A DNA stretch of 64,000 bases. It comes from a virus. Shown here piece after piece: positions 8,852-48,032 of this stretch. The stretch's first letter is position 1; the number at the start of each line of letters is the position of its first letter. Under the pieces are notes generated by a model. The model saw only the letters and a list, made by a program, of their open reading frames with translations, was not told where the DNA came from and did not search any database. A program made the position numbers and the translations under genes. The stretch lies in IMG/VR virus record IMGVR_UViG_3300045988_144682; one strand, 5' to 3'.

Positions 8852-8942
8852 TAAAACTAAGATTTCAAGAAAAGGAGTGATACAGAAATAGTGCTGGCTC
8901 TACAGAATACAAAGAATTTTATAATTAAACCATAATAAATGG

Positions 8943-8970
8943 TTGACAAATCAAGAAAACATGATATACT
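8943..8970 (+). promoter_or_regulatory. sigA-type promoter
   Basis: TTGACA at 8943-8948, 16-nt spacer, TGaTATACT at 8962-8970. Confidence 0.55.
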
Positions 8971-8995
8971 ATAATCAGAAACGAGGTGATATGAA

Positions 8996-9247: not shown

Positions 9248-9346
9248 AGGAGAAGAAAGATGATTAAACAGTTAATCTAGACAGAAACAAAAGTATTAAG
9301 CTCAAAGACCGTTATTGATTGTGGCAACGGCGATGTTGCTATCGGT

Positions 9347-10081: not shown

Positions 10082-10107
10082 CAAACAAAAATAAAGGACA
10101 AAACATT

Positions 10108-11991: not shown

Positions 11992-12370
11992 GGGGATGAA
12001 ATTGGATTCGATTGGGCATGGAACGGATATAATTCGCAGGAGCGACTACCTAATAGTCAAACTTAAAATAAACGCTGAAGAATTAAGAATGGTAGCGTAA
12101 GCTATATCAGTCTGTGAGATTGGGATATTGGTAACAGGCTGTATTAAGAGCTAATATCCAAAAGGAGAATGTTTTCTCTGTAAGTTGACTCTTCAAAAAA
12201 CAACAGAGTGGTGGACGTTGTAAGAAACCTTTACAAACCCAAAAACGGAGTAGTTACCTGATTCACTGGGGCAACCGTTTTCAAACAAAATGCCCGAATG
12301 AATGGTATTGCGTAAAAGATTATATAATTAGTACGTGTTTAAGACGGGGGTTCGACTCCCCCCATCTCCA
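11992..12370 (+). ncRNA. ssrA: tmRNA (SsrA)-like RNA
   Basis: 5' GGGGATGAAATTGGATTCGA. 3' GGGGGTTCGACTCCCCC-CATCTCC-A. The acceptor GGGGATG/CATCTCC includes a G3:U70 pair. No CCA is encoded. The tag frame is uncertain; the best candidate ends ...NAEELRMVA-TAA at 12098-12100. Confidence 0.75.
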
Positions 12371-12496
12371 CTGTAATAGCTGGTTATTGTTGTTACGGCT
12401 ATTACTAAAAACCTTTCTATCTAAATGGGGCGATGTAAAAATCGTCCCAAATAAAAAAATCACACAACTTTAAACAAACAATAATAAAGAAAATGC

Positions 12497-23458: not shown

Positions 23459-23466
23459 GTAATAAT

Positions 23467-23697
23467 ATGGTCATGAGAGATAGAGAATACAAAACGGTTG
23501 AAAATATTGTATTGATTTGTTATACAGTTGGATTAGTCCTTACATGCGTAACAAAATTTATACCATTTATATTTTTAACGGTTGCAGCATATCCTATTTC
23601 ACTTGCTATATTAAACAATAATAAATGTGGGAACAGAACAAAAAACTGTTCCCAGAAAACAAAAAAGTTCAATAAGAAGGAGAGAACATTATGGTAA
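23467..23697 (+). CDS. hypothetical small membrane protein
   Basis: 76 aa with two hydrophobic helices and a basic tail. Confidence 0.5.
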
Positions 23698-24257
23698 GTT
23701 TGGTAAAAGGACAGAAAGTTGATCTTACAAAAGGAAACGCAGGGTTAAAGAAAATTCTTGTCGGTTTAGGATGGGACACAAATAAGTACGATGGAGATGA
23801 TTTCGATTTAGACGCATCTGCATTTCTGCTTGATAAAAATGGAAAAGTGACAACTGATAAAGACTTTGTATTCTTCAACAATCTGGTACATCCGAGTGGA
23901 GCAGTAAAACATATGGGAGATAACCTTACTGGATCTGGCGATGGAGATGATGAACAGATTATTGTTGACCTGGCAAAGATCCCGGAAAATATCGAAAAGA
24001 TTGCATTTACAGTAACAATTTATGAAGCAGACAGTAGAATGCAGAATTTCGGTATGGTGTCTAATGCGTATATTCGTATGTCAAACGAGGAAACAGGCGA
24101 AGAAATGATTAGATACGATCTTGGAGAAGATTATTCTACAGAAACATCTATGGTTCTTGGAGAGTTGTATCGTCATAATGGCGAGTGGAAATTCAATGCG
24201 ATTGGTGCTGGTTATGCTGGCGGTTTAACTGCACTTTGCAATGGATATGGATTATAA
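23691..24257 (+). CDS. TerD-family protein (paralog 1)
   Basis: 188 aa. [39 protein letters not shown]. Confidence 0.92.
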
Positions 24258-24272
24258 AGGGAGGAAACGAAA

Positions 24273-24884
24273 ATGGCAGTTAGTTTAACAAAAGGTGAAA
24301 AGGTAAATCTTTCAAAAGTGGTGGAGAAACTGGCGAATGTAACCGTTGGTCTTGGTTGGGATGCAGCGGAATACGGAGATAGTATTGATTGTGATTCTTC
24401 TGTATTTGTACTTAAAAATGTAGTTGGAAAGTCTGGAATGTTCGGCTTATTTAAGAAAGAAGAGAAAGCAAGATTAGTAAATGATGAGGATATCATTTAC
24501 TATGGTCACAAAAAACATTCAAATGGTTGTATCAAACATCATGGAGATAATTTGGTTGGTGGCAGTGTAGGTGATGATGAGCAGATTTCAATAAATTTGA
24601 AAGAAATGCCGGAAGATGTTACTAGACTGGCTGTTGTAATCAATATCTATAATTGTAGAAATAGAGGGCAACATTTTGGCATGATTAAAAACTGTTTTGC
24701 ACGTATTGTAGATGATGCGACCAAAGAAGAAATCTGCCGATATAATTTATCAAATGACTATAACGGTTGTACAGCACTGATTGTGGCTGAGTTCTACAGA
24801 GAAGATGGAGAATGGCATTTTGAAGCTGTTGGAAAAGGCACACATGATGGCAGTATTTCAGAACTTGCAAGAAGATACAAATAG
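24273..24884 (+). CDS. TerD-family protein (paralog 2, divergent with insert)
   Basis: 203 aa. GLGWD, CDSSVFVL, GDNLVGGSVGDDEQI, WHFEAVGKG. Confidence 0.88.
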   Translation: MAVSLTKGEKVNLSKVVEKLANVTVGLGWDAAEYGDSIDCDSSVFVLKNVVGKSGMFGLFKKEEKARLVNDEDIIYYGHKKHSNGCIKHHGDNLVGGSVGDDEQISINLKEMPEDVTRLAVVINIYNCRNRGQHFGMIKNCFARIVDDATKEEICRYNLSNDYNGCTALIVAEFYREDGEWHFEAVGKGTHDGSISELARRYK

Positions 24885-24900
24885 AGTGGAGGAAAAGTAG

Positions 24901-25479
24901 ATGTCAGTAAGTTTGAATAAAGGCGATAGAGTCGAACTTTCAAAGGACAGCAGAGTGAATGCAGTTTCCGTGTGTTTAGGTTGGGACACAGCTAAATACG
25001 ATGATGATGGAGATTTTGATTTGGATGCGTCTGCATTTGTTATCGGTAGAAATGGCATGACAAGAAGAGATGAGGATTTCATTTTTTACAATAATCTGCA
25101 GCATCCTAGTGGTGGTATCACTCACAGTGGAGATAACCTTACCGGCGGTGGAGATGGGGATGATGAAGTAATCAAAGTCGTTCTTGATAAACTTCCAAAA
25201 TATGCCGAAAAGGTTGTGTTCTGTGTAACAATTCACGAAGCAGAGAGAAGAATGCAGAACTTTGGAATGGTCGAAAACTCTTTTATTAGGGTGGTTGATG
25301 ACAATACTGGTTGTGAGATTACACGTTACGACTTAAAAGAGAAATTCGGAGATTCTACTGCAATTATCGCAGGTGAAATCTACAGAGATGGATCTGGTTG
25401 GAAATTCCATGCTGTAGGGGATGGATTCAATGGTGGACTTTTTGACTTATGTGAAAAATTTGGAATTGAGGTAAAGTAG
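24901..25479 (+). CDS. TerD-family protein (paralog 3)
   Basis: 192 aa. LGWD, DLDASAFVI, GDNLTGGGDGDDEVI, WKFHAVGDGF. Confidence 0.92.
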   Translation: MSVSLNKGDRVELSKDSRVNAVSVCLGWDTAKYDDDGDFDLDASAFVIGRNGMTRRDEDFIFYNNLQHPSGGITHSGDNLTGGGDGDDEVIKVVLDKLPKYAEKVVFCVTIHEAERRMQNFGMVENSFIRVVDDNTGCEITRYDLKEKFGDSTAIIAGEIYRDGSGWKFHAVGDGFNGGLFDLCEKFGIEVK

Positions 25480-25480
25480 A

Positions 25481-26248
25481 ATGACAGTAGGTACAAGTAA
25501 TTTAGTGATATTCGTTATTGCTATTATCCTGGTTGTTGGAATTATTGCACTGATTTTGAATAAGACATTTTTCAAACAGCTTGTGATTAAATACAGAGGA
25601 AGAACAGAAGAGATTGCAAGACAAGATGCAGCGACACCACAAGGTGCAACGGATTATTTCAATAATGCAATCAGAGAAAAAGAAACTTTATATGGGGATG
25701 CAGAACGTTCATATGTTGAGATTGCTGGAAAATTAGACGAGTCCGAAAAGGAACAGTATCATTTGAAGAAAGAACTCATGAAGATTGATAAATCTATCAA
25801 TGATTGTCTGGACGCAAATGACGAAAACGGTGCTAGACAGTATGCAATGAAGAAAATCACAGTTCAGCAGAAAATTGATACTCTGAAAGATACAATCGAA
25901 GAGTTTAAGAAAGCGAAAGATCAGCAGGATGAAATCAGAAAAGCGGTGAAACAGGAACTTGACGAACTCAAAGAAGAGAAAGAAAGAACCGTTTATCAGA
26001 TGGAAGCAGATCAGCAGATTATTCAGCTTCATGAAGGTATGAATGCAAGTGCAAGTTCAAGTGAAAGCGATCACATGTTGGAAAGAGTGCGTGAAGGTGC
26101 TAAAAAGACCAGAGAACGTGCAGCCGGAGCGCAGATTGCCTATGATACAAGTGCAAAAGCACAGGATCGTAGACTGGAAGCCCAGGCAAGAAACAGAGAG
26201 GCTGATGAACTTCTGGCAGAAATGAAAAGAAAAAGAGGTAACAACTAA
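25481..26248 (+). CDS. membrane-anchored coiled-coil protein, PspA/IM30-like (weak)
   Basis: 255 aa with an N-terminal TM helix followed by a long heptad-rich region. Similarity to PspA is loose (..NGARQYAMKKI.VQQKIDTLK..). Confidence 0.35.
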   Translation: MTVGTSNLVIFVIAIILVVGIIALILNKTFFKQLVIKYRGRTEEIARQDAATPQGATDYFNNAIREKETLYGDAERSYVEIAGKLDESEKEQYHLKKELMKIDKSINDCLDANDENGARQYAMKKITVQQKIDTLKDTIEEFKKAKDQQDEIRKAVKQELDELKEEKERTVYQMEADQQIIQLHEGMNASASSSESDHMLERVREGAKKTRERAAGAQIAYDTSAKAQDRRLEAQARNREADELLAEMKRKRGNN

Positions 26249-28076: not shown

Positions 28077-29252
28077 ATGGAGAACATGATGAGTGAATTA
28101 GATATGAACTGGGAAATTTTAGCGAATAAGGATTATGCATTTTTGACAGAAAGCCCCCTCTTAGGTAATAATATTCTTCTTTTGACTTTGGGCGGTTCTC
28201 ATGCATATGGAACGAATGTGGAAACGTCAGATATTGATGTTAGAGGAATTACTTATAATCCAGTTGATTCTCTGCTTGGGAACAGAGTTTTTGAGCAGTA
28301 CGAAGACGAAGCGACAGATACCGTTGTATATGGATTAAATAAAATGTTTAAGTTGTTATTGGAGTGTAACCCAAACACTATCGAGCAGCTTGGTTCTAAA
28401 CCAGAACATTATATTATTCTCAATGATGACGGTAAAAAGCTGATTGAAAACAGGAAAATCTTTCTTTCTAAAAGAGCGATTTATACTTTTGGCGGTTACG
28501 CAAATTCACAGTTACGCCGGTTGCAGAATGCGTTGGCAAGAGACAGTTATCCACAGGCAGAGAAAGAAAAACATATTCTTGGATCAATCAGAAGTGCAAT
28601 GAACAGTATTATTGAGAAATTCCATACAGTTAATGGAAAGTTGATTGAATATAATTTTGCCAATGACAATGGAAAAATGGTTCATGCATATAAGGAATAC
28701 AACCAAAAAATGCAAGAGATGGAACAGTTTAAGGACTTTGAGTATGGATCACTCAACCTTTACCCGGATAAATCCGATAGAGAGGGGATGGACGTTGAAA
28801 TCTATATGGACGCTTGCTTACATCATTATCCATTGAGAGATTACAAGGGTATCTGGAACGGTATGAATACTATCGTAAAAGATTACGAAAAACTGGGTAA
28901 GCGAAATACGAAGAAAGATGACATGCATCTTAATAAGCACGCACAACATTTAGTCAGACTGTATCTTATGTGTATTGACATTCTTACAAAAGAAGAAATC
29001 ATTACATATCGTGCCGATGAACATGATTTGCTTATGAGCATTAGAAATGGAGAGTTCCAGAAGCCGGAAGGTGGTTATCGCCCAGAATTCTTTGAACTGG
29101 TTGATGATTTGGAAAAGAAAATGAAAGATGCAGCAGAAAACACAAGTCTGCCGGATTGCCCAGATACAGAAGCAGCTTATGAAATGCTTGTGGAAATGAA
29201 CAAAAATCATATTCTGAAGATGGAGGATTATTATGACGGAAGCACATATTAA
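28077..29252 (+). CDS. Pol-beta-fold nucleotidyltransferase, RlaP-type (RNA-repair associated)
   Basis: 391 aa. LLLTLGGSHAYGTNVETSDIDVRGI is the GS..YG...SD.D signature of this nucleotidyltransferase family. Confidence 0.65.
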   Translation: MENMMSELDMNWEILANKDYAFLTESPLLGNNILLLTLGGSHAYGTNVETSDIDVRGITYNPVDSLLGNRVFEQYEDEATDTVVYGLNKMFKLLLECNPNTIEQLGSKPEHYIILNDDGKKLIENRKIFLSKRAIYTFGGYANSQLRRLQNALARDSYPQAEKEKHILGSIRSAMNSIIEKFHTVNGKLIEYNFANDNGKMVHAYKEYNQKMQEMEQFKDFEYGSLNLYPDKSDREGMDVEIYMDACLHHYPLRDYKGIWNGMNTIVKDYEKLGKRNTKKDDMHLNKHAQHLVRLYLMCIDILTKEEIITYRADEHDLLMSIRNGEFQKPEGGYRPEFFELVDDLEKKMKDAAENTSLPDCPDTEAAYEMLVEMNKNHILKMEDYYDGSTY

Positions 29253-32530: not shown

Positions 32531-32902
32531 ATGAGAACGAATGATATTTTATTAGACGGATTTAATGATATCCGCACACTTCAAAGATATCTTTATATGT
32601 CAGATGAACATTATATTGAGATAGAAAATGTTATTGGAGTGAAACTGAGAATTAGAATGGGAGAAAACTTACATTATTATTGTAAGAACATGAATTTCCC
32701 AGATTTGCCAGATGCATGTTTTTCGGAATCAATGACGAATAAAACTATGTTAGGTATTATTGACCAGTTGAAAGAGAATCCGGCAACTGAATATCCAAAC
32801 AGTTTTAAGAATAGATGGGATGAGATAGTATCAATAACATCTGCAAACGTAGCTCAGAACGAATATAAATGGGCGAATGGAAGATACAGAGGGAGTGTGT
32901 AA
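32531..32902 (+). CDS. hypothetical protein
   Basis: 123-aa ORF. Confidence 0.55.
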   Translation: MRTNDILLDGFNDIRTLQRYLYMSDEHYIEIENVIGVKLRIRMGENLHYYCKNMNFPDLPDACFSESMTNKTMLGIIDQLKENPATEYPNSFKNRWDEIVSITSANVAQNEYKWANGRYRGSV

Positions 32903-32903
32903 G

Positions 32904-34136
32904 ATGAAAGACATCAAAATGCCAGAAAATGTAAAAATGATTCTTGATAAATTATCAAGTGAAGGGCATGAAGCTGTTATAATTGGTGGTTGCGTGCGTG
33001 ATTCTATCATGGGGATCGAACCGCATGATTGGGATATTGCCACATCTGCCCAACCAGAAGAAATAATGGAATGTTTCAAGAGATATAATCTAATGAAAGC
33101 TGGATTAAAACATGGGACAGTAACCGTTATTATTGACCATGAGCCGTATGAAATCACTACTTACAGAATTGATGGGGAGTATTCAGATCATCGAAGACCT
33201 GATTCTGTTGATTTTACATGTGATTTAGCAGAAGACATTATGCGCCGGGATTTCACAATCAATGCTATCGCATATGACGGAGAAAATATTATTGACTTGC
33301 ATGATGGTATTGGAGATTTGCAGAAAGGGATTATCCGTTGTGTTGGTAATGCAAATACAAGATTCAGAGAAGATCCGCTTAGAATTCTCCGGGCGATTCG
33401 ATTTGCTGCACGATTTGGCTTTGAGATTGAAGAATTAACTAAAAAAGCAATGTTTGATAATTGTGATATGTTGCGACTCATTGCAACGGAGAGAAGACAG
33501 AGTGAATTTACAAAAACACTTTGCAGTGAGCATGTCAGTATCATCAAGGATTATGCTAAAATACTGAAATATGGTTTACCATGTATTGACAGCATTAAGG
33601 ATTTTGATAAGGCAGTACGTGCAATAGAAATGTGCCAGGATATCAGTGAAAAATTGGCAATTTTGATTGACGGATTATCATTATCAGAGTATAATAAAGC
33701 TGTTAAAGCAATTTTGACAGGAATGAGATATCCGAATAAAGTAATTGTATCTGTTCAAAATATTTTTGCTGCAAAGAAAATGGTAATTACTAACTCAGAT
33801 GCGTGTATCAAAAATATGTTGTACAAGTTTTCACTGGAAGATGTGAAACATATTTTAAGATATAAACACGCTAAAATAAATGCAAGTGATAATATAAATA
33901 AAGAAACACTTGAAAAAGTAGAGGATATGATTGAACGTGCAGAAGAATTGGCTGAATCAGATGAATGCTACAACTTAAAAGGTCTTGCAATTAACGGAAA
34001 TGATTTAAAACGCCTGGGAGTGAAAGATCTTGACATTAAGTGGATGTTAGATGGACTGTTAAAATTAGTAACCACAAATCAAGTAGAAAATTCGAGGGAC
34101 GTATTGATCGAGGTGGCAAAAATTTCCATGTTATAA
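32904..34136 (+). CDS. cca: CCA-adding tRNA nucleotidyltransferase
   Basis: ATG at 32904 after GAGGGAG. IIGGCVRDSIMG..PHDWDIAT (head domain), TYR.DG.Y.DHR, RRDFTINA, DPLRILRAIRFAARF. Confidence 0.88.
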   Translation: MKDIKMPENVKMILDKLSSEGHEAVIIGGCVRDSIMGIEPHDWDIATSAQPEEIMECFKRYNLMKAGLKHGTVTVIIDHEPYEITTYRIDGEYSDHRRPDSVDFTCDLAEDIMRRDFTINAIAYDGENIIDLHDGIGDLQKGIIRCVGNANTRFREDPLRILRAIRFAARFGFEIEELTKKAMFDNCDMLRLIATERRQSEFTKTLCSEHVSIIKDYAKILKYGLPCIDSIKDFDKAVRAIEMCQDISEKLAILIDGLSLSEYNKAVKAILTGMRYPNKVIVSVQNIFAAKKMVITNSDACIKNMLYKFSLEDVKHILRYKHAKINASDNINKETLEKVEDMIERAEELAESDECYNLKGLAINGNDLKRLGVKDLDIKWMLDGLLKLVTTNQVENSRDVLIEVAKISML

Positions 34137-37186: not shown

Positions 37187-37304
37187 GCTGATGTAGTTCA
37201 ACTGGTAGAACATTTGATTATGAAAAATGCACTTCGTACAATAAGTGCTAACAGCAATAGCAAAGCCACTCAAACAGTTGTTGGTTCGAGTCCAACCGTC
37301 AGCA
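37187..37304 (+). tRNA. tRNA-scaffold gene with 52-nt anticodon-loop region (unit A)
   Basis: Acceptor GCTGATG/CGTCAGC. D arm GTTC-AACTGGTA-GAAC. Stem TTTGA (37213-17) / TCAAA (37270-74). Variable CAGTT. T arm GTTGG-TTCGAGT-CCAAC. The insert holds hairpin GCACTT/AAGTGC followed by ACAGCAAT (37251-58). Confidence 0.55.
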
Positions 37305-37862: not shown

Positions 37863-37936
37863 GGATCATTAGCTCAGTTGGTTAGAGCATCCGGCTCATA
37901 ACCGGGCGGTCACTGGTTCGAGTCCAGTATGATCCA
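37863..37936 (+). tRNA. tRNA with CAT anticodon (Met, or Ile2 if lysidinylated)
   Basis: Canonical cloverleaf GGATCAT-TA-GCTC-AGTTGGTTA-GAGC-A-TCCGG-CTCATAA-CCGGG-CGGTC-ACTGG-TTCGAGT-CCAGT-ATGATCC-A. No CCA is encoded. Confidence 0.9.
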
Positions 37937-38421: not shown

Positions 38422-38557
38422 GCGTATGTAGCTCAGTAGGTTAGAGCGTCCACAAAAATTTTATAGAGCCTTGTATAAGGCTTGAACCGCAAATATTTTT
38501 AAAGAATTTGAAATTGAGGAAGGTGGAAGGTCACAAGTTCAAGTCTTGTCATACGCA
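38422..38557 (+). tRNA. tRNA-scaffold gene with 69-nt anticodon-loop region (unit I)
   Basis: Acceptor GCGTATG/CATACGC. D arm GCTC-AGTAGGTTA-GAGC. Stem TCCAC (38449-53) / GTGGA (38523-27). Variable AGGTC. T arm ACAAG-TTCAAGT-CTTGT. Insert hairpin AGCCTT-GTAT-AAGGCT followed by TGAA-CCGCAAAT. Confidence 0.55.
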
Positions 38558-38651
38558 CTTATTCTAATTTTTATATACTTACAGCATAATCAAACAATAA
38601 TAAAGTATGTAGGAATTATGAAATATAATTCAAAATTAGGAGGAATTGAAC

Positions 38652-40205
38652 ATGGGTTTCATGAATTCAATGAAAAGTACGTTGAATGAAGATTTCAACG
38701 AAAGCTACACAGAAAACGGCGCACTTGGATATAGAACAACAGGTAAACACTTGCTTGATTTGAATTTCAAGGTCGCATCTCTGAGAAAAGCTGATGCAGA
38801 AACAATCATTTCTGGATTCGATAAAGCGTTTTCAGAAGACCATATTCACGCACTCAAATGGTTATTCTATTTGCGTGATGCGAGAGAAGGTCTGGGGGAA
38901 CGTAGATCATTCAGAATCATCATGTCTCATTTGGCAAATGTTGAGCCGGAAATCAGTAAAGTGCTGATTGGTTTAATCGCTGAATACGGACGTAGTGATG
39001 ATCTTCTCTCCCTGTTAGGTACAGAGTGTGAAAAAGACACACTGGAACTTATCAAAAATCAGCTAATGAAAGATTTAGAAGCAAAAAAAGCGAACAAACC
39101 AGTATCATTGTTTGCTAAGTGGTTGCCAAGTTGTAATGCAACTTCCCACAAAACAAGAGAAAATGCTGCAGTAATTCGTAAGTATTTGGGATTCACAGAA
39201 AGACAATATCGTAAGATTCTTTCGGAACTGAGAGAGTATATTGATGTTGTTGAAAGAAAGATGTCTGCTAAGAAATGGGGCGAAATCAATTACGAAGCCG
39301 TTCCGTCAAAAGCAAATCTTATTTACAACAATGCATTCCTCAAAAACGATGAGGAACGCAGACGAGAGTATCTGGATAAGCTGGAAAAGGGAGAGGCGAA
39401 AATCAACTCTTCTACAAACTTCCCACATGATATCGTACATAGTTATCTGAAAGGTCGTAGCTATTACAGATCCAATATAAAAGAGAACAAAGCTCTGGAA
39501 GCATTATGGAAAGCACTTCCTGATACAGTACAGGGTGATGGAAATACTCTTGTTGTCAGAGATGGTTCTGGAAGTATGATGTGTAGTGTTGATCCAAACA
39601 GCAGCATTACTGCACTGGAAGTCGCAACAGCACTTGCTATTTACTTCTCTGAGAGATGTTCTGGCGAATTCAAAGATAACTTTATCACATTCAGTTCAAG
39701 ACCTGAGTTGATTGATCTTTCAGCGTGTAGTTCACTGGCAGAAAAAATCAGAAGATGTTATGCAGAAAATGACTGTTCTAACACAGACATTGAAAAAACA
39801 TTTGATCTTATTCTGCAGACAGCTATCAATACTAATATGAAACAGGAAGACATGCCAAAGAATATCCTGATTATCAGTGATATGGAATTTGACCAGGCAA
39901 CCTATTCATATGGATGGGGAGGTAGCGCAAGCACAGTAAATGAAACACTGTTCAAGACAATTGGCAGAAAATTTGAGAAAGCTGGATATCAGCTTCCGAG
40001 ACTTGTGTTCTGGAATGTAAACTCACGTACCGGCACAATCCCTGTCAAGGAAAACGCTTTGGGTGTTGCTCTTGTAAGTGGATTCTCAGTCAATGTTGCG
40101 AAAATGGTATTAAGCGGAGAACTTGATCCGTATAAATGTCTGATTGAGCAGCTTGACACAGAGAGATATGCACCGATTGAGGCAGCAATCAAAGATTTAA
40201 AATAA
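38652..40205 (+). CDS. vWA-domain protein of the DUF2828 / TROVE (Ro60)-like architecture
   Basis: ATG at 38652 after AGGAGGA. A helical N-terminal about 300 aa beginning ..YTENGALGY.TTGK.LLDLNF. C-terminal vWA with MIDAS VVRDGSGSM and ISDMEFD. The family assignment is from memory. Confidence 0.6.
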   Translation: MGFMNSMKSTLNEDFNESYTENGALGYRTTGKHLLDLNFKVASLRKADAETIISGFDKAFSEDHIHALKWLFYLRDAREGLGERRSFRIIMSHLANVEPEISKVLIGLIAEYGRSDDLLSLLGTECEKDTLELIKNQLMKDLEAKKANKPVSLFAKWLPSCNATSHKTRENAAVIRKYLGFTERQYRKILSELREYIDVVERKMSAKKWGEINYEAVPSKANLIYNNAFLKNDEERRREYLDKLEKGEAKINSSTNFPHDIVHSYLKGRSYYRSNIKENKALEALWKALPDTVQGDGNTLVVRDGSGSMMCSVDPNSSITALEVATALAIYFSERCSGEFKDNFITFSSRPELIDLSACSSLAEKIRRCYAENDCSNTDIEKTFDLILQTAINTNMKQEDMPKNILIISDMEFDQATYSYGWGGSASTVNETLFKTIGRKFEKAGYQLPRLVFWNVNSRTGTIPVKENALGVALVSGFSVNVAKMVLSGELDPYKCLIEQLDTERYAPIEAAIKDLK

Positions 40206-40422: not shown

Positions 40423-41517
40423 ATGAGAAAGTTAGCAACAATTCGTGAAATCGCAGAAATCAAGCCGATTCCTGATGCTGACAGAATCGAAGTAGCAAGA
40501 ATTGATGGTTGGGAAGTTGTCGTGTCAAAGAAAGACAATTTTCATGTTGGCGATAGAGTGGTATATGTCGAGATTGACAGTAAGATGCCGGAAACGCCAG
40601 AGTATGAATTCTTGAAATCAAGAAAGTATGTTGTAAAGACTATCGTAATGAGAGGACAGGTTTCACAAGGATTAGTGATGCCGTTATCCATTCTTCCGGT
40701 AGGTGAATACAAACTTGGTCAGGATGTTACGGATGTCTTAGGAATCATTAAGTATGATCCACAGCTTGAAGAAGAAAATGCGGTTTTCGAGGAAAACAGA
40801 AAGAAAACCAGGAATCCAGTTGTGAAATTTTTAATGAGATATGCATGGTTCAGAAAAATCTATCTCAAGAAGAATACGCACACAGAGTTTCCAAACTTTA
40901 TTAAAAAGACAGATGAAGAAAGAATTCAGAATATGCCTGAGTTATACGAAAGGCTGAAGAATGAACAAACCAATCTGATAGTGACAGAAAAAGTTGACGG
41001 ATGTTCCGGCACTTATTTTTTACGCAAAATTCCGAGAAAATTCGGAAAAGCGAAGTACGAATTCGGAGTTTGCAGCAGAAATAGGAGATTGCCACAGCCG
41101 GATAACAGCTACTATTGGAAAATCGCCAACAAATACAAAATTCGCAGCGTTCTTGAAAAATTGATAGACGATGAGGATTATATAGTATTACAAGGCGAAA
41201 TTACTGGTGCAAAAATCCAGGGAAACAAATATCATGAGAAAGATTGCCAGTTATGGGCATTCAACCTCATAGCCCCCTCAAAGAAATATAATACCATTGA
41301 GATGCAAGACATTCTCATTAAGCATGGTATTCATACAGTACCAATTGTTGAGATTGGTTACAATGTAAAAGGTGATATACAAGATATTGTAAAGTATGTG
41401 AAAGGCAAGTCACAAATTGTAGATAGGGAAAGAGAAGGATGTGTTTTTAGAAATACTGATAAGAATATCAGTTTCAAATGTATTAACCCAAACTTCTTAA
41501 TCAAGAATAATGAGTAG
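40423..41517 (+). CDS. ATP-dependent RNA ligase (Rnl5/DraRnl-like, N-terminal OB-type extension)
   Basis: 364 aa. The N-terminus MRKLATIREI.EIKPIPDADRIEVA.IDGW.VV is typical of this ligase clade. Nucleotidyl-lysine motif TEKVDG. Confidence 0.72.
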   Translation: MRKLATIREIAEIKPIPDADRIEVARIDGWEVVVSKKDNFHVGDRVVYVEIDSKMPETPEYEFLKSRKYVVKTIVMRGQVSQGLVMPLSILPVGEYKLGQDVTDVLGIIKYDPQLEEENAVFEENRKKTRNPVVKFLMRYAWFRKIYLKKNTHTEFPNFIKKTDEERIQNMPELYERLKNEQTNLIVTEKVDGCSGTYFLRKIPRKFGKAKYEFGVCSRNRRLPQPDNSYYWKIANKYKIRSVLEKLIDDEDYIVLQGEITGAKIQGNKYHEKDCQLWAFNLIAPSKKYNTIEMQDILIKHGIHTVPIVEIGYNVKGDIQDIVKYVKGKSQIVDREREGCVFRNTDKNISFKCINPNFLIKNNE

Positions 41518-41612: not shown

Positions 41613-42518
41613 ATGGGAAGGGAAATGAGAATGGATCGGAGCAGTATTGGTACGAGAATGAAATCTTATGAAGATGCTCAGAAAACGTACTTAACAAGAA
41701 GAATGCCAGTAATGATTAGAGTGGATGGAAATGCTTTTCATACATTCACCAGAGGTTTTGAAAGACCTTTTGACAGCATTATGGCAGAATCAATGCAGCG
41801 CACAATGAAATATATGTGCGAAAACATTTCTGGATGTGTCTTAGGATATACACAGAGCGATGAAATCACATTACTTCTGATTGATTACAAGAAAAAGAAT
41901 CAGGGAGCATGGTTTGGATATGTAAAGCGAAAGGTAGAAACTATCGCAGCGAGTATGGCAACAATGGCTTTCAATGAGGCTTTTTCAGATGTAATTACGG
42001 AAAAGATATCAGAAGACATTATGAAAGTTCAGAATGATGAAGAAGCCGAAAAAGTAAAGGATTACTATTTCAAATATGTAAAGAAATGTGGAAGGGCAAT
42101 GTTTGATGCTAGAGCATTTAATATCCCAGAATTTGAAGTAGTCAATGAATTTATTTGGAGGCAGCAGGATTGTACAAGAAATTCAATTCAGTCAGTTGGT
42201 CATGCAAATTTTTCAGATAAGAAAATGCATAAGAAAAATATGAGTCAGATTCAAGACATGCTCATGTTGAAGAAAGGAATCAACTGGAATGATTTTCCGA
42301 CTTTTCTGAAAAGAGGATCTTGTTGTATCAAAGAAGATTATTTCATTCCAGAAAATGAGCTTCCAGAAAATCACAGAAACAATTTATCCCCACGGACATT
42401 AGATCCAGAAGAAGATGAATATGGTGTGTGGAGATCACGTTGGGTTATCGACAAAGAAATTCCAATTTTCACACAGAACAAAAACTATGTTAATAATTTG
42501 TTTTTAAACAAGTATTAA
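41613..42518 (+). CDS. Thg1-like protein (tRNA 3'-5' nucleotidyltransferase/5'-end repair)
   Basis: 301 aa. RMKSYE....YL.RRMPVMIRVDGNAFHTFTRGFERPFD and GYTQSDEITLLL. The start may be the ATG at 41631. Confidence 0.82.
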   Translation: MGREMRMDRSSIGTRMKSYEDAQKTYLTRRMPVMIRVDGNAFHTFTRGFERPFDSIMAESMQRTMKYMCENISGCVLGYTQSDEITLLLIDYKKKNQGAWFGYVKRKVETIAASMATMAFNEAFSDVITEKISEDIMKVQNDEEAEKVKDYYFKYVKKCGRAMFDARAFNIPEFEVVNEFIWRQQDCTRNSIQSVGHANFSDKKMHKKNMSQIQDMLMLKKGINWNDFPTFLKRGSCCIKEDYFIPENELPENHRNNLSPRTLDPEEDEYGVWRSRWVIDKEIPIFTQNKNYVNNLFLNKY

Positions 42519-42550: not shown

Positions 42551-43456
42551 ATGAAAACAAGTTATTCAGAAATCGTAAATGAAAACTACATCGGCAAAAC
42601 TGAAAATCCCATTCCGATGAATGAAATTCTGAAAAAAGCAAACGAAGAAAAGTTAGAGCCATCTTCAAGCAGTCTTGAAAAAGTGCTGTTTTTGGGAATT
42701 GATGTGCAGCAGGACTTCATGGATAACGGAGCGTTAGGTGTTCCCGGCGCACATGAAGATGTTGCTAGAATGACTAAGTTCATTTATAACAACATGGAGA
42801 AAATCTCGCACATTTCAGTATCTATTGATACTCACATTCCACACCAGATTTTCCATCCGTGTTGGTGGATTGATGAAAACGGCAATAATCCAGCACCTTA
42901 CACTGTTATTACATTAGCAGATTTGGATTCTGGAAAATGGCGTCCTATTGTTGAACCAATTAAGAGCCGTGAGTATGTAGAGAATCTGGAAAAGAACTCT
43001 AAAAAGAAACTTTGCATTTGGACATATCACTGCTTACAGGGTACAGAAGGTGCAGCACTGGAAAATCAGTTTGCAAATATGATTTACTTCCACAGTGTAG
43101 CAAGAAAATACGCACTGAACCCTATCGTAAAAGGTCAAGATCCACTGTCGGAGATGTACGGTATTATCAAGCCGGAATATGACAGAAGAGGATATGTGAA
43201 CCAGGCACTATTAAACAAGTTCGCAAAATTTGACAAAATCATCATCGGCGGTGAAGCAAGAGATTATTGCGTATACGAATCTCTCTGCCAGATGCTTGAA
43301 TTTTACAAAGATGACACTGATATGCTGAAAAAGTTCTACATTCTGGAAGATTGTATGTCTGCCATTGGTGATAAAGCCGAAGTTGACAAGATGTATGCAG
43401 ATCTTCAGAAAAAGTACAAATTCAACATTGTACGCAGCACTGAATTCAAACTGTAA
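42551..43456 (+). CDS. pncA: isochorismatase-family hydrolase, nicotinamidase-like
   Basis: 301 aa. FLGIDVQQDFMDNGALGVPGA, WTYHCLQGTEGA, IIGGEARDYCV (catalytic Cys context). Confidence 0.65.
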   Translation: MKTSYSEIVNENYIGKTENPIPMNEILKKANEEKLEPSSSSLEKVLFLGIDVQQDFMDNGALGVPGAHEDVARMTKFIYNNMEKISHISVSIDTHIPHQIFHPCWWIDENGNNPAPYTVITLADLDSGKWRPIVEPIKSREYVENLEKNSKKKLCIWTYHCLQGTEGAALENQFANMIYFHSVARKYALNPIVKGQDPLSEMYGIIKPEYDRRGYVNQALLNKFAKFDKIIIGGEARDYCVYESLCQMLEFYKDDTDMLKKFYILEDCMSAIGDKAEVDKMYADLQKKYKFNIVRSTEFKL

Positions 43457-43467: not shown

Positions 43468-44127
43468 ATGGAAGAAATTATTATTGATGGATTAGACGAA
43501 ATCGAAATGCAGAATACAGCCGTTGATGATATCGACAGTGAAAATGTCAATCTGATTTTCATTGGAATTGACAAATCTGGATCAATGTCCCCATACAGAG
43601 GTGATATGGTTTCTTGTCTGAAAGAGTTCAAACAGGCATTAACCGACTCTAAAGAGGCAGATGAAATTTTAGTAGCAAGAGCAGACTTTAACAGCTCAAT
43701 CAACGTGGGTGGTTACAAGAAAATCACAGAGTTTGATACAAACTACGATGCCAGTGGTATGACAGCACTGTACAATGTCATTGAAGATGGTACACAGAAA
43801 CTTACTGACTACATGGAATATCTGAAACAGCAGGGAGTACGTGTAAAAGCGGTATTTGCAATTTTCAGTGATGGTGAGGATACAGTTTCCAATGATCCGA
43901 GTGAAGCAAAACACAGAATTCAGGATCTAAACAATAAAGAAATTACAACAGCTTTCATTAGTTTTGGTGGTACAGCTACAGGTATTGCAAAGAGCCTGGG
44001 ATTTAGAAATATTCTGGATGTATCAAGTTCTGCATCTGAGCTGAGAAAAGCGTTCGATTGTCTGAGTAAATCTGTAATCGAAAGCTCAAAGAGTGTTGTA
44101 GCCGATGGAGATAACTTCTTCATTTAA
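43468..44127 (+). CDS. vWA-domain protein (TerY-like)
   Basis: 219 aa. MIDAS IGIDKSGSM, later T.L and FSDGEDT. Confidence 0.78.
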   Translation: MEEIIIDGLDEIEMQNTAVDDIDSENVNLIFIGIDKSGSMSPYRGDMVSCLKEFKQALTDSKEADEILVARADFNSSINVGGYKKITEFDTNYDASGMTALYNVIEDGTQKLTDYMEYLKQQGVRVKAVFAIFSDGEDTVSNDPSEAKHRIQDLNNKEITTAFISFGGTATGIAKSLGFRNILDVSSSASELRKAFDCLSKSVIESSKSVVADGDNFFI

Positions 44128-44181
44128 GAATAACAGAATTCGCCCCATTCATTAAGGGTGGGGCGATACACGGAGAAAAAT

Positions 44182-44820
44182 ATGTTTGTAAACAAAATAG
44201 GTTACGATCATTTATCTATCGGAATGAACTGCCAGGATTACGGATTTGAATTGTCGGATTATAAAGTGAAAGTTGTAGCAGATGGTTGTTCTGAGGGATT
44301 ACATTCAGAAGTAGGAGCAAAGACATTTTGCCACCTGTTGTCAAAAGGATATGATATCGAACAGGCTTTTTCTTCTTTGGTTGCTGTATATGGGCAGACA
44401 ATTGAGGATATGAAGAATTTCTTGTGCTTTACATATCTTTCGGTAACAGAAAGTAATGAATATTTCATTACATCAAATTGTGGCGATGGTTTCCTTATTT
44501 TGGAAGATAACGAAGGTAATATATCGTTTGTTGAATTAACCGATGGCGAATATCCGAAATACTATATCTACAACTATATTGACAAAAAATATCTTAATCA
44601 TTATGCAGATGGTGTTTCTGTAGAAAATAAGCTATTCAGCAAGGAAGAATACAAGAATGTAGGTATTGCTTCCGATGGATTGAGATTTATTGTAAATGCA
44701 GATGAAGATATCAAACAGGAATTTATTGAATGTTTAAAGTCTGGGAAAGCAGTGAAAATAAAAAGATTTATTAACCGTAACCAGAAATTATTCAGAGATG
44801 ATATTACAATTGTTTTTTAA
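44182..44820 (+). CDS. PP2C-family protein phosphatase-like
   Basis: ATG at 44182 after GGAG. NCQDYG......VVADGCSEG.HSEVGA, NCGDGF, IASDG. Confidence 0.65.
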   Translation: MFVNKIGYDHLSIGMNCQDYGFELSDYKVKVVADGCSEGLHSEVGAKTFCHLLSKGYDIEQAFSSLVAVYGQTIEDMKNFLCFTYLSVTESNEYFITSNCGDGFLILEDNEGNISFVELTDGEYPKYYIYNYIDKKYLNHYADGVSVENKLFSKEEYKNVGIASDGLRFIVNADEDIKQEFIECLKSGKAVKIKRFINRNQKLFRDDITIVF

Positions 44821-44834
44821 GAAAGGGACATATA

Positions 44835-45800
44835 ATGGGAAAAATTACTGAGAAATCAACAAAAGCACAGATTATGGACGCATATACTCAGGCATTAGCT
44901 GAGTTGGAGAAACTTAAAGCTATGAGCGATTCGCCGGTTGAAAATGCAAAGAAAGAGGCATTGGAAGCATCTATGCAGAATGCAGAAATAGCAGCAAGCA
45001 ATGAAGTATTTTCAGATACGATTGTAAAACAGTACAATGATCTGAAAATTGCGATTGACGAATATCAGAAAGAGTTAGAAGGACTCTACGGTATCAAAGC
45101 TGAAGCTGACGGTCTGGCAGCAGCTATCAATGCTCATAGAGCGAAAGTAGCTGAAATGAACGATGAGTATAAACAGAAGAAAGCGGATCTCGATGCAGAG
45201 CTGGCACGGAAGACAGTAGAAGTAAAAGAAAAGATTGCAGATTTGGAAAAGAGTGTTCAGAAAGCTAAGAAACAGGCTGATGAAGAAGTAAAAGAGTATA
45301 ATACCGATATCAACAAGAAACGTAATCGTGAGAAAGATGAGTATGACTACAATCTGAAGATGGATCGTAAGGCAGATGCCGACACTTGGGCAGAAGAAAA
45401 AGAAAAGCGTGAAGCAGAAATTCAGGCAAAAGATGATGCCGTAACAGAGCGTGAAGAAGCGATTGCTGCGAAAGAAGAAGAAATCCAGGCTATGAAAGCA
45501 CAGATTGAAGCATTCCCGGATAAACTGGCAGAAGCCAAAGAGGACGCAGCGAAAGAGGCAAAGGCTAAAGCGGACAAGAGTTTTGCATTTGAAAAACGTG
45601 CGTTAGAATCTGATAAAAAACATGCAGAGGAAATGGCAGATGCAAAAATCAAGAATCTGGAATCTCAGGTTGAAGCACTGACACAGAGCAATGCGGAACT
45701 TTCCAATAAACTTGATGCAGCATATGCTCAGATGAAAGACATGGCAACCGCTACTGTCCAGGCTGGCGCAACTGTAAAGGTCGTATCAAGCGACAAGTAA
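44835..45800 (+). CDS. Ala/Glu/Lys-rich coiled-coil protein
   Basis: 321-aa low-complexity heptad-rich ORF sitting between the phosphatase and the kinase. Confidence 0.6.
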   Translation: MGKITEKSTKAQIMDAYTQALAELEKLKAMSDSPVENAKKEALEASMQNAEIAASNEVFSDTIVKQYNDLKIAIDEYQKELEGLYGIKAEADGLAAAINAHRAKVAEMNDEYKQKKADLDAELARKTVEVKEKIADLEKSVQKAKKQADEEVKEYNTDINKKRNREKDEYDYNLKMDRKADADTWAEEKEKREAEIQAKDDAVTEREEAIAAKEEEIQAMKAQIEAFPDKLAEAKEDAAKEAKAKADKSFAFEKRALESDKKHAEEMADAKIKNLESQVEALTQSNAELSNKLDAAYAQMKDMATATVQAGATVKVVSSDK

Positions 45801-45823
45801 AATAAAAGAAAGCCGATAGAGAA

Positions 45824-47515
45824 ATGATTTTAAAAAGTAACATAACAAGATTGCCGGTATTAGCCGAAGGTGGAGAAGGAATTATATATGAATATGGAGA
45901 TAAGCTGATAAAGGCTTATAAATCCCATGTGAATATGCCAACCAAAGAGAAAAAGATTAAACTCTTAATGGCGAAGAATTTACCGGCAGAAGTCATTTCT
46001 CCGATTGATATTGTCTATGACAGCCGGAATAAATTTGTTGGTTACATCATGGACAAAGTAGACGGAGAAGAATTCAAGAAATTGTCAAATAAAAAATTCG
46101 TGAAAGCGAATGGAATTACAAAGAAAGAGATTCTTGCCATGCTTGACAGATTGTTTGATGTTTTGGCTGATTTGCATAAGCAGGGCATATACATTGGCGA
46201 TTTGAACGATCAGAACATTTTGTTTGATAAGCACTATAATATCTCTATCATTGACTGCGATAGTTGGTCAATTGATTCTGAGAAATGTGATGTTGCTATG
46301 GATTTATTCAAAGATCCGTTACTGGTTTCAAATAACTTTGACCAAAAAACAGATACATATGCATTCAGTGTATTGAGTTGGAAATCTCTGACACGAATTC
46401 ATCCGTTTGGTGGGACAATGCAGCCGGATATGAATATTATGGAACGTATGAAGAAAGGTATATCCGTGATAGACAATCTGGCGGTAAAGATTCCGAAAAC
46501 AATCGGATCATGGGCTGGTCTATCGCCAGAGCTTATCAGTGCGCTCAAAGCAGTTTTCGAGAATAAAAGCCGGGAACTTCACGGTGAAATTCATGAGCTA
46601 AGTTGTCATTTGAAATACTGTGATACAGATAAGGATTATTACTATGATAAATACAATGTCTGCCCAGTATGTGATAACTCTGCAAGGATCAATAGAAAGC
46701 CGATAAATCAGGGCGTACAGTCTGGATTACAGCTTGTAGAACTGTTGGTTAAATCAAGCATTAAAGCGGTTGTCGATGAGAATATGTACATTGATACCGA
46801 TGATAATGTTGTAGATATCAAGAGTGGCAAGAAATATAAGCACAAAAACTTGATAAAATATCATTTTCATTCAGATGGATATTTGATTGAGGATGATAAT
46901 AATACGATTGTCATTCACAGCGAAAAAGATTATGAGCTTGATAAAAAGTTCAAATCAAGAGTAGTTGTTGATGGGGATAAGATGTATTACATTTCAAAGC
47001 AGAACACCTTGACAGAAGTGACTATTACGAAGGATGGGAATAGCTTTAGAAATCTTTGTAAATGCAGCGATAGTTGTTATTTTGAAGTAAGCAATGGAAA
47101 GTATTTCGTTGTCAACTATTATCAGAGCAAAATAATCTTTGATATCAATGGCATAAACCACATTTATAAATATGACGGAAGGATTACAAATTATGGTATT
47201 CACTATGATGTTGCCACTGATAAGTGGTTAGTAGTCTTGGAAAATGAAACTGGAAGTTTCTTAACTCTTGTATTTAAAGGAAATGATATTCAATATGAAT
47301 GTAATGAAATTAAGTATGAGTGTTCGCTTGGAAACATGTGTATGAGTAATAACACAATCTTTTTCCCGATTGATGGAAAAATAAGAGGTTTTGCTTATGC
47401 AAAAGATATGTTTAAAGATTTTCAGTGTGGTGTTGTAAATTATGATAGCAAATTGATTAAGAGTGGCAAAAAAATCATTATCGTCAACGATGAAAATATA
47501 TATGCTCTATCATAG
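45824..47515 (+). CDS. Ser/Thr protein kinase-like protein with C-terminal beta-rich domain
   Basis: 563 aa. Gly-loop-like GGEGIIYEY, IKAYK, catalytic-loop-like LHKQGIYIGDLNDQNILF, IIDCDSW (DFG-equivalent), and a CPVC zinc knuckle. Confidence 0.7.
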   Translation: MILKSNITRLPVLAEGGEGIIYEYGDKLIKAYKSHVNMPTKEKKIKLLMAKNLPAEVISPIDIVYDSRNKFVGYIMDKVDGEEFKKLSNKKFVKANGITKKEILAMLDRLFDVLADLHKQGIYIGDLNDQNILFDKHYNISIIDCDSWSIDSEKCDVAMDLFKDPLLVSNNFDQKTDTYAFSVLSWKSLTRIHPFGGTMQPDMNIMERMKKGISVIDNLAVKIPKTIGSWAGLSPELISALKAVFENKSRELHGEIHELSCHLKYCDTDKDYYYDKYNVCPVCDNSARINRKPINQGVQSGLQLVELLVKSSIKAVVDENMYIDTDDNVVDIKSGKKYKHKNLIKYHFHSDGYLIEDDNNTIVIHSEKDYELDKKFKSRVVVDGDKMYYISKQNTLTEVTITKDGNSFRNLCKCSDSCYFEVSNGKYFVVNYYQSKIIFDINGINHIYKYDGRITNYGIHYDVATDKWLVVLENETGSFLTLVFKGNDIQYECNEIKYECSLGNMCMSNNTIFFPIDGKIRGFAYAKDMFKDFQCGVVNYDSKLIKSGKKIIIVNDENIYALS

Positions 47516-48032
47516 GGATCTTGTATTGCCGACAGAAAAATATTATGTGTATATCCACAGAAATCCTTTAACACACAAAATATTTTATGTTGGTTCTGCA
47601 AAAGGAAACCCATTGAGAGCATATGAATTTGGAAAACATAGAAATCAATCTTGGAAGAATGAGGTAATATCATTTGGAGGGACATGCAATATCATAGTTG
47701 AAATAGTACAGTATTGTGAAGATCCAATCCAGGCGCAAGAGGCTGAGTTTCAACTGATTTATAAATTGAAAAAATGTGGTGAAGCATATTGTTGTAATGA
47801 AGGAGATACGTCTTTTAAGAGAAAATATCCAAAATTACAGTACCATTTATTCATCGGAAGTACACATATAAAATTCACAAGAAAAATGGAATTATTTTCG
47901 TATTGTAAGAAAGAGTATGGTCTTAGTAGAAATATAGTGAATCTTCTGATTGAAAACGATGGTGAATACAACGGTTCACACCAACAGGCGTGTGGGCTGA
48001 AAATCATAAGAGAAGGAAAGGAACATCAATAA
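47490..48032 (+). CDS. GIY-YIG homing endonuclease
   Basis: YYVYIHRNPLTHKIFYVGSAKGNPLRAYE (GIY...YVG...R) followed by E in QEAEF. The start overlaps the kinase 3' end. Confidence 0.7.
   Translation: MKIYMLYHRDLVLPTEKYYVYIHRNPLTHKIFYVGSAKGNPLRAYEFGKHRNQSWKNEVISFGGTCNIIVEIVQYCEDPIQAQEAEFQLIYKLKKCGEAYCCNEGDTSFKRKYPKLQYHLFIGSTHIKFTRKMELFSYCKKEYGLSRNIVNLLIENDGEYNGSHQQACGLKIIREGKEHQ

Follow-up and report, generated by a model that had tools for sequence, protein, structure and literature searches.

A TerY-P-type vWA, phosphatase and kinase cassette with a conserved nicotinamidase-like member suggests a link between phospho-switching and NAD metabolism in phages and bacteria

We analyzed a 64,000-nucleotide stretch of viral DNA (IMG/VR record IMGVR_UViG_3300045988_144682, hereafter the window) and found in it a cassette of four conserved genes. 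These encode, in order, a long nicotinamidase-like hydrolase of 301 amino acids (aa), which we call N301, a vWA protein, a PP2C-like phosphatase, and a Ser/Thr protein kinase. By profile alignment, the last three are a bona fide TerY-P-type triad, and N301 is linked to them in 33 lineages and two distant bacterial phyla. Together, these observations suggest that the cassette couples Ser/Thr phospho-switching to nicotinamide adenine dinucleotide (NAD) metabolism, through nicotinamide, during phage–bacterium conflict. An earlier reading made from the DNA letters alone (the sequence-only reading) had outlined a somewhat different four-gene cluster at 43468–47515, composed of a vWA protein with a metal-ion-dependent adhesion site (MIDAS), a PP2C-like phosphatase, a 321-aa Ala/Glu/Lys coiled-coil protein, and a kinase-like protein with a large beta-rich C-terminal domain. 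All four open reading frames (ORFs) are present there on the + strand, spaced 11–30 nt apart. The motifs it quoted are also found in the translations: IGIDKSGSM (vWA residues 32–40), VVADGCSEG..SEVGA (PP2C), GDLNDQNILF (kinase residues 125–134), and IIDCDSW (kinase residues 142–148). The vWA, PP2C, and kinase part of that cluster stands, but its fourth member is not the coiled-coil gene; it is the gene for N301 at 42551–43456, which had been missed.

The composition of the unit was established by comparing loci. Metagenomes yielded more than 350 full-length relatives of the kinase, and we gathered 66 viral and 53 genomic loci, in addition to contigs from exact-protein look-ups (numbered here L001 onwards), whose ORFs were searched both with the window proteins and with profile hidden Markov models. 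A colinear block of the N301, vWA, PP2C, and kinase genes was present in 86 of the 87 loci that had a full-length kinase and enough upstream DNA; the three genes proposed by the earlier reading to travel together indeed do so. All four genes occurred in 101 loci; grouped by kinase identity, these fall into 33 lineages at 80% and 20 at 60%. In the single exception (L062, 6155–10710), N301 is deleted, the vWA ORF is shorter than in close relatives, and a DUF2828 gene abuts the remnant. Chloroflexota chromosomes carry the same four genes in the order PP2C, kinase, N301, vWA, and their kinases retain the GDLNDxN motif, the Zn-ribbon, and a C-terminal domain of ~300 aa. N301 and vWA are thus adjacent and in the same order in both gene arrangements. 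In L127 and L209, this pair was also detected with no kinase beside it, standing alone in L209. In L127, a Chloroflexota chromosome, it follows a 940-aa STAND-type NTPase with BTAD, AAA_16, and TPR domains (4967–9777 and 9798–10478), and is flanked by a gene with the effector-associated domain EAD7.

In Chloroflexota, the phmmer E-values were ~1e-65 for N301, ~1e-30 for the kinase, and ~1e-20 for the vWA protein, making N301 the best-conserved cassette member between the two phyla. The classical triads of Selenomonas and E. coli contained no N301. Judged from these loci, the real unit is N301–vWA–PP2C–kinase, with N301 as a conserved fourth member lying outside the coordinates of the earlier cluster. 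Linkage that outlasts rearrangement across phyla strongly indicates, in our view, a joint function of the four proteins, with N301 and vWA as the probable core pair.

The carriers of the cassette are diverse. They include large phages, phages of 40–85 kb that were also seen integrated (for example, the prophage L097 of Diplocloster hominis), and a chromosomal site in Lachnospiraceae. The latter follows dCache-MCP, ParB_N, PAPS-reductase/DUF3440, and GH31 genes. Downstream of the kinase, the gene set differs between genomes, with NAD-salvage genes in L001–L004 and a bpMoxR–DUF5682–VWA_CoxE–DUF4132 set in L131/L132, and we therefore consider the site a variable island. In Chloroflexota, the cassette sits among housekeeping genes. 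The window itself is sequence of a gut phage, with a low GC content of ~35% and nearly all of its long ORFs on the + strand. A megablast search of GenBank phages with the cluster gave no match, and a tblastn search of the same phages with the kinase returned only fragments or remote matches; the phage that hosts the cassette is known solely from metagenomes.

N301 (42551–43456, + strand) was assigned to the isochorismatase superfamily of cysteine hydrolases. The best PDB matches of a 20-sequence profile were nicotinamidases (5.6e-8 and 8.4e-7), and hhalign aligned N301 with E. coli PncA at 97.2% probability (E 2.8e-11). D51, K194, and C240, invariant in the 20 sequences, align with the Asp, Lys, and Cys of the PncA segments VDLQNDF, HKGENP, and TDYCV, respectively. 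Similarly, the invariant D93, H95, and H160 align with the QDWH and WPDHC segments of PncA/Pnc1. We assigned a catalytic role to the first three residues and a metal-binding role to the others on the basis of the established PncA/Pnc1 structures, and we take the Asp-His-His metal site to be the feature that sets nicotinamidases apart within the superfamily. Relative to PncA, the hhalign alignment revealed a 45-aa N-terminal extension and a ~50-aa insertion, which contains an invariant W105–W106 pair and a conserved NPAP segment. The family is large, comprising 2,015 representative clusters at E ≤ 1e-3, and two of its members, P0389 (42.7 bits) and P0462 (37.6 bits), score above the 27-bit Pfam cut-off for Isochorismatase. 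Because the window protein falls below this threshold, carries extra segments, and belongs to a large separate family, we call it nicotinamidase-like and not PncA; nicotinamide deamidase activity is a prediction only.

Several family members have unusual architectures. In P0366 and P0400, an N-terminal domain of ~230–255 aa is fused to the N301-like hydrolase, and this domain had no match in Pfam, the PDB, or PHROG. P0389 is a tandem duplication of the hydrolase. A further fusion, of N301 to Rho in P0361, looks like an assembly chimera and was set aside.

The kinase ORF (45824–47515, + strand, 563 aa) matches Pfam PF00069 (Pkinase) with 39.2 bits against a cut-off of 31.7. It begins with a YegI-like Ser/Thr protein kinase domain (residues 1–255, 45824–46588), continues into a Zn-ribbon or Zn-knuckle (residues ~256–295, 46589–46708), and ends with a beta-propeller-like domain (residues ~300–563, 46721–47515). 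The G-loop (E15–G19), K30, D126, N131, and D144 are invariant across 13 homologs with 48–86% identity to the window protein, so that the catalytic Lys and Asp are both in place. The AlphaFold2 (AF2) model has a predicted local confidence (pLDDT) of 80, and Foldseek matches it to kinase folds at probability 1.0. When aligned to E. coli YegI with hhalign (97.8%, E 6.7e-13), the similarity covers residues 12–286 over 270 columns and runs through the Zn-ribbon. The predicted ribbon has the form C266-x2-[D/H]269 ... C280-x2-C283, in which the three Cys are invariant; of the 13 sequences, 12 have D at position 269 and one has H. This segment aligns with the C...CPWC segment of YegI, and Chloroflexota homologs have CxxC...CxxC at the same place.

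The C-terminal half of the kinase protein, which the earlier reading had described as large and beta-rich, contains 28 beta-strands in the AF2 model (pLDDT ~80–95). We read these as a probable seven-bladed beta-propeller with four strands per blade. The top Foldseek match of the model is consistent with this reading: it was LRRK1 (676 alignment columns), a kinase followed by a WD40 propeller. The call is based on the strand count, the pLDDT, and the LRRK1 match, as kinase folds filled the Foldseek list. Mean pairwise identity is 50% in the propeller-like domain versus 60% in the kinase domain, and we presume the former to be a sensor or docking domain. At its 3′ end, the kinase gene is overlapped by 53 nt, in the longest reading, by an ORF with a GIY-YIG domain (47463–48032, + strand), an arrangement retained in the relatives L006 and L073.

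The phosphatase gene (44158–44820, + strand, 220 aa counted from a GTG codon) matches Pfam PF13672 (PP2C_2) with an E-value of 2e-9 and 37.8 bits against a cut-off of 24. Its metal-binding motifs are invariant in 15 sequences: QD27, D42-G43, G109-D110-G111, D173-G174, and D214-D215. E. coli PphC falls in the same Pfam family, and hhalign aligns the two colinearly, though weakly (33%, E 4.5e-4). Because homologs begin at MF(I/V)NKIG, translation probably starts from the ATG at 44182 rather than from the GTG.

The vWA protein (43468–44127, + strand, 219 aa) was the hardest to place. It had no match in Pfam, NCBIfam, or PADLOC, and neither the single sequence nor the family profile reached the vWA domains of the PDB. 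We modeled it with AF2 from a mixed alignment of 50 sequences built from two homolog searches (pLDDT 80; predicted template-modeling score 0.80), and all 50 PDB matches listed by Foldseek were vWA/integrin-I domains at probability 1.0. The MIDAS residues D35, S37, S39, T99, and D135 are invariant across the 50 sequences (27–84% identity). The C-terminal helix is rich in Ser, with S200, S202, and S207 invariant, and is followed by a disordered tail that terminates in an invariant Phe (F217). With hhalign, the protein aligns to E. coli YegL over nearly its full length (83.5%, E 8e-6), and the Ser-rich helix falls on the LSSSLRSVS segment of YegL. In addition, two homologs carry the JGI name "YegL", and Chloroflexota relatives have PF00092. 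The window protein itself has no Pfam VWA match, and we therefore hold with moderate confidence that it is a TerY/YegL-like vWA protein with an intact MIDAS site.

TerY-P systems are defined by three components: a TerY-like vWA protein, a PP2C phosphatase, and a Ser/Thr kinase that carries a Zn-ribbon at its C-terminus (Anantharaman, Iyer & Aravind 2012, via PMC11090510). They were proposed to act as a phosphorylation-dependent switch, and the name derives from Ter-associated vWA proteins (PMC11090510). The sequence-only reading had equated the trio with the TerY-P triad, and the direct profile alignment to YegL, PphC, and YegI, together with the shared kinase and Zn-ribbon architecture, bears this assignment out. 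In E. coli K-12, yegL (Pfam VWA), pphC (PP2C_2), and yegI stand in the same order as in the window. The same reading had called the function of such triads experimentally unknown, a statement that is outdated: according to PMC11090510 and PMC7699616, TerY-P-like modules act against T7-like phages, and kinase–OB fusion variants are stand-alone antiphage systems (Gao et al. 2020, via PMC11090510), while YegI is an active kinase (10.1101/819920). A PADLOC search left the vWA and PP2C proteins unmatched and assigned the kinase only to mad6, MkoA, PD-T4-6, and PglW; as a control, E. coli YegL, PphC, and YegI likewise had no TerY-P match in PADLOC.

The coiled-coil gene (44835–45800, + strand, 321 aa) has the composition that had been described, with 18% Ala, 14% Glu, and 15% Lys (47% together) and two Pro. 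It matches phrog_29668 (E 2.5e-53), a PHROG without an assigned function. We found it only in L007–L018 and L060, whose kinases are at least 94% identical, that is, in one of 33 lineages. The syntenic relatives L006 and L073 (kinase 70–72% identical) have no coiled-coil gene, and their PP2C–kinase gap measures 11–12 nt. In other lineages, unrelated genes occupy gaps within the cassette, including an HTH and pRha gene set in L130 (by Pfam) and a lipoprotein gene (by eye). Given its presence in one lineage, its absence from syntenic relatives, and the unrelated genes in its slot elsewhere, the coiled-coil gene is most simply classified as a recent lineage-specific accessory insertion between the PP2C and kinase genes. 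The same evidence rules it out as a component of the module; the earlier reading was right that it is not part of the described triad.

Further inserts, which look like mobile genes, were recognized by eye. Those in L090 (4825–8986) are an AP2/HNH-like endonuclease, a small acidic protein, a bactofilin-like repeat protein, and a C5-methyltransferase-like ORF, and in L068 a DUF559-like endonuclease gene (8231–8932, − strand) lies between cassette genes on the opposite strand. The sole relative of the coiled-coil protein among GenBank phages is gp268 of Bacillus phage G (30.6% identity over 96% of the query). In that phage (L207, JN638751.1, 192030–203010), gp268 is encoded a few kb from the "putative kinase" gp264 and the NUDIX hydrolase gp273, with the isochorismatase hydrolase gp275 and the nicotinate phosphoribosyltransferase gp277 also nearby, a loose parallel to the window.

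What the cassette might do is suggested in part by other genes of the window. On the + strand, these encode a PncB-type nicotinate phosphoribosyltransferase (NAPRTase) with a NAPRTase_N domain (5518–6834), the NAD synthase NadE (6853–7596), a NUDIX hydrolase (7919–8491), and a Macro-domain protein (10108–10584). In L001–L004, the cassette abuts isochorismatase, Pribosyltran, NAPRTase-family, and NAD-synthase genes. Beside the cassette in the window, the genes for RNA ligase, the Thg1-like protein, and DUF2828 serve RNA repair. The data establish the gene identities, the intactness of the catalytic and metal residues, a linkage that persists through rearrangement, and the place of the cassette among TerY-P systems. 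Who phosphorylates whom, what N301 hydrolyzes, and how the phage benefits are points that we infer, and we propose the following model. The kinase would sense a trigger or dock a partner through its Zn-ribbon and propeller, and would phosphorylate the N301/vWA pair, with PP2C reversing the modification. The likeliest target would be the Ser-rich C-terminal helix of the vWA protein, with S200, S202, and S207 as candidate acceptors. The vWA protein, in turn, may bind or gate N301 through its MIDAS site, and its disordered tail with the invariant Phe could dock on the propeller. The output would be control over an amidohydrolase whose substrate is nicotinamide or a closely related pyridine-carboxamide, setting the flow from nicotinamide to nicotinate. 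Nicotinate could then be used by the phage's own PncB-type NAPRTase and NadE, so that, when NAD+ is broken down by host immunity or by infection, the cassette would form a regulated entry into its resynthesis.

Precedent for the phospho-switch comes from the activity of YegI, the switch proposed for TerY-P systems, and the invariant Ser residues of the vWA protein that align with YegL. We give an even chance to the core of the model, namely that a phospho-switch on vWA/N301 controls an amidohydrolase feeding the phage's nicotinate route to NAD+. Its more specific form is one that we advance tentatively. There, N301 would be the effector of the TerY-P switch, the kinase would sense infection damage or NAD+ breakdown and toggle the conversion of nicotinamide to nicotinate, and PP2C would reset the system.

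A number of points weigh against this model. No conserved alpha-C Glu is evident in the 13 kinase homologs, position 42 being E, K, Q, or R; E. coli YegI, in which Asp replaces this Glu, nonetheless shows kinase activity in vitro (bioRxiv 10.1101/819920). For the window N301, neither Pfam, Isochorismatase included, nor PHROG gave a match, and this, with its extension and insertion, means that its substrate may not be nicotinamide. NadD was not found among the window proteins scanned, and pncB and nadE lie 36 kb from the cassette. The NAD cluster adjacent to the cassette in L001–L004 already holds a separate canonical isochorismatase, so N301 is not simply the salvage nicotinamidase there. Nor is an NAD-salvage neighborhood general, given the MoxR/vWA neighbors in L131/L132 and the housekeeping genes in Chloroflexota. 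Contact between the cassette proteins, and phosphorylation among them, are likewise what we infer. Finally, the TerY-P relatives tested so far are antiphage defense systems, which by analogy would fit a defensive role equally well.

Such a role, in antiphage defense or superinfection exclusion by a phage or prophage, is the alternative that survives best, and we regard it as possible though not probable. The propeller-kinase would sense a competitor, and the nicotinamidase-like effector would remove nicotinamide. Also possible, and to be held just as loosely, is the corollary that competitors could then not rebuild NAD+ via nicotinamide, while the carrier would use nicotinate through its own PncB and NadE. 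Reports of TerY-P-like modules that protect against T7-like phages (Gao et al. 2020, via PMC11090510 and PMC7699616) speak for it, as do the cassette's presence in the integrated prophage of Diplocloster hominis (L097) and in the variable island beside ParB_N and PAPS-reductase genes with changing downstream sets. The N301–vWA pair of L127, after a STAND-type NTPase and beside an EAD7-domain gene, points in the same direction, and so do the best PADLOC matches of the kinase, which are defense kinases (mad6, MkoA, PD-T4-6). The propeller is also less conserved than the kinase domain, as a sensor would be. However, the kinase carries a Zn-ribbon and a propeller and not the OB-fold of the validated variant (PMC11090510), and the cassette includes no toxic or nuclease effector. 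In the window, it lies among RNA-repair genes and not among lysogeny genes. In Chloroflexota, its housekeeping neighbors and the vWA orthologs listed, all at least 67% identical to the query, make it look like a vertically kept cellular function and not a patchy defense system. Both the defensive role and control of the phage's nicotinate route place N301 at the output, and our data do not separate them.

It is also conceivable, though we think it unlikely, that N301 is not a nicotinamidase and instead hydrolyzes another amide or ester, such as a signaling molecule or a modified nucleotide, within a sensor–effector unit unrelated to NAD salvage. The isochorismatase superfamily acts on varied substrates, and the window protein scores under the Pfam Isochorismatase thresholds. 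The N-terminal extension, the ~50-aa insertion with W105–W106 and the NPAP segment, and the size and separateness of the family, some of whose members are fused to the unmatched N-terminal domain, would all be in keeping with a different substrate. Against this stand the invariance of D93, H95, and H160 along with the catalytic triad, and the fact that the best PDB matches are specifically nicotinamidases.

The sequence-only reading had favored a link to Ter genes, and indeed the window contains three TerD genes (23691–25479), 18 kb upstream of the cluster as had been noted. This raises the idea of a Ter-linked stress module that works with the TerD operon and has the coiled-coil protein as an added substrate or scaffold, an idea encouraged by the position of the coiled-coil gene inside the cluster and by the Ter-derived name of the TerY-P family (PMC11090510). 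Yet among the best 80 of 111 TerD matches, the window's own lineage is the only one whose IMG/VR contigs carry both TerD and the cassette. Approximately 60 other large TerD-bearing phage contigs were not matched by the full kinase scan, and none of the ~45 contigs of a cassette group with 49% identity was among those best 80 TerD matches. No TerD gene was found within 9 kb of the cassette in any related locus. The E. coli yeg locus likewise had no ter genes in the 18 kb examined, which indicates that Ter association is not a strict requirement of TerY-P systems. From the contig sharing and the absence of nearby TerD genes in these scans, we reject a general or functional TerD link, and chance, within an auxiliary region rich in genes, best explains the proximity in the window. 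With the coiled-coil gene confined to one of 33 lineages, missing from syntenic relatives, and replaced in its slot by unrelated genes, the Ter-linked explanation is already largely refuted by the comparative data and in our estimate very improbable.

A host-takeover kinase of the T7 gp0.7 type, which would phosphorylate host proteins while its neighbors are incidental, is hardly credible: phage Ser/Thr kinases that remodel host proteins are known, and the position of this gene among early or auxiliary genes would suit one, but the four genes stay linked in 33 lineages and, in rearranged order, in non-phage Chloroflexota chromosomes, and the kinase is a homolog of cellular YegI-type kinases, Zn-ribbon included.

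The remaining features of the window provide further context. No terminator-like sites were found on the + strand between 38 and 49 kb, and a scan for promoter-like sites (47 versus 36.9 ± 6 in shuffled sequences) was judged uninformative. Upstream of the cassette lie a DUF2828/DUF7788 gene (38646–40205; phrog_850, "RNA-binding protein") with a MIDAS-like DGSGSM motif, and adjoining it an RNA ligase gene (40423–41517) and a Thg1-like gene (41613–42518). The DUF2828 gene starts ~90 nt after one of two over-long matches to the tRNA model on the + strand (38422–38557, 136 nt, and 37187–37304, 118 nt; Rfam RF00005, 53.8 and 57.8 bits), neither of which is called by ARAGORN. In bacteria, the gene for Ro60, a TROVE and vWA protein, has those for tRNA-like Y RNAs and an RNA ligase as neighbors. 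The DUF2828 gene, the tRNA-like elements, the RNA ligase, and the Thg1-like gene may thus form a Ro60-like/Y-RNA-like RNA-repair unit of the phage. A tRNA-Met gene lies at 37863–37936, and a phage tmRNA at 11992–12373 (+ strand; Rfam RF00023, 80 bits; ARAGORN tag AEELRMVA*).

Other + strand genes include an RlaP-family nucleotidyltransferase ("RNA repair pathway DNA polymerase beta family") and a CCA-adding/poly(A) polymerase-family enzyme (28077–29252 and 32877–34136), as well as a SNF2/DEAD-family helicase and a protein with a GmrSD_N domain, the N-terminal domain of a type IV restriction endonuclease (8–1867 and 2761–3924). The TerD region itself (20825–26248, + strand) comprises an 877-aa P-type cation ATPase, the three TerD paralogs, and a weak match to PspA/IM30. 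PspA-like genes, again weak matches, also lie two genes upstream of N301 in L128–L130.

TerY-P triads are widespread and have been validated against phages, but they have lacked an identified mechanism and effector; N301, linked to the triad in so many lineages, is a concrete and assayable candidate output. Were the model correct, phages, prophages, and bacteria would be using Ser/Thr signaling to control who rebuilds NAD+ during immune depletion. A TerY-P-type system would then have a mechanistic output for the first time, and regulation would be added to the NAD+ arms race at a new level. NAD+ metabolism is a central battleground between phages and bacterial immunity, and the cassette would tie phospho-signaling to it. 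As the family is abundant in Lachnospiraceae of the human and animal gut and in their phages, it may also matter for gut phage ecology. Moreover, the four proteins are small and seemingly soluble, making them tractable for biochemistry.

Osterman and colleagues reportedly described the phage NAD+ reconstitution pathways NARP1 and NARP2 in 2024. Gut jumbo phages also carry NAD+ genes (PMC11662467). Like phages with NAD+ salvage or reconstitution enzymes (NAMPT/NAPRTase, NadE), the window phage encodes NAPRTase and NadE, as well as NUDIX and Macro proteins. The pathways described are plain metabolic enzymes, and a nicotinamidase would supply nicotinate to that route. In the searchable literature, no phage NAD+ pathway is described as coupled to a kinase, phosphatase, or vWA switch, and, the original 2012 TerY-P paper aside, none of it links TerY, vWA, or PP2C with a nicotinamidase or isochorismatase. 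The nicotinamidases PncA and Pnc1 share with N301 the residues at the catalytic Asp-Lys-Cys and metal Asp-His-His positions. They differ in length, N301 having 301 aa compared with 180–235 aa in the solved nicotinamidases matched and 213 aa in E. coli PncA, and in genomic context, N301 being tied to a signaling triad and not to salvage genes.

The LRRK-type kinases offer an architectural analogy, with a kinase followed by a C-terminal beta-propeller, at 11% identity; the window kinase lacks their ROC-COR domains, and we do not take the resemblance as a sign of homology outside the kinase fold. The antiphage TerY-P systems of Gao et al. (2020) likewise combine vWA, PP2C, and Ser/Thr kinase on mobile or variable regions. 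In the validated variant, the kinase is fused to an OB-fold, whereas the window kinase has a Zn-ribbon and a propeller, and an extra hydrolase gene accompanies it. The closest prototype is yegL–pphC–yegI of E. coli, which shares with the cassette a MIDAS vWA protein, a PP2C_2 phosphatase, and a kinase with a Zn-ribbon, in the same order. YegI and the window kinase also have in common the unusual motifs GD[LV]N..N and ID[CS]DS[WF]. The motif-VI Asn is kept in the window kinase (N131) and missing from YegI, and YegI has transmembrane segments (10.1101/819920) and an HHH_5 match, whereas the window kinase continues into a beta-propeller. Unlike the E. coli prototype, the cassette is phage-carried, and, while the E. 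coli and Selenomonas triads stand without a nicotinamidase-like gene, it has one fixed upstream of the vWA gene. Within the TerY-P kind, the cassette is set apart by its fixed nicotinamidase-like partner, the propeller after the Zn-ribbon, and its carriage by phages.

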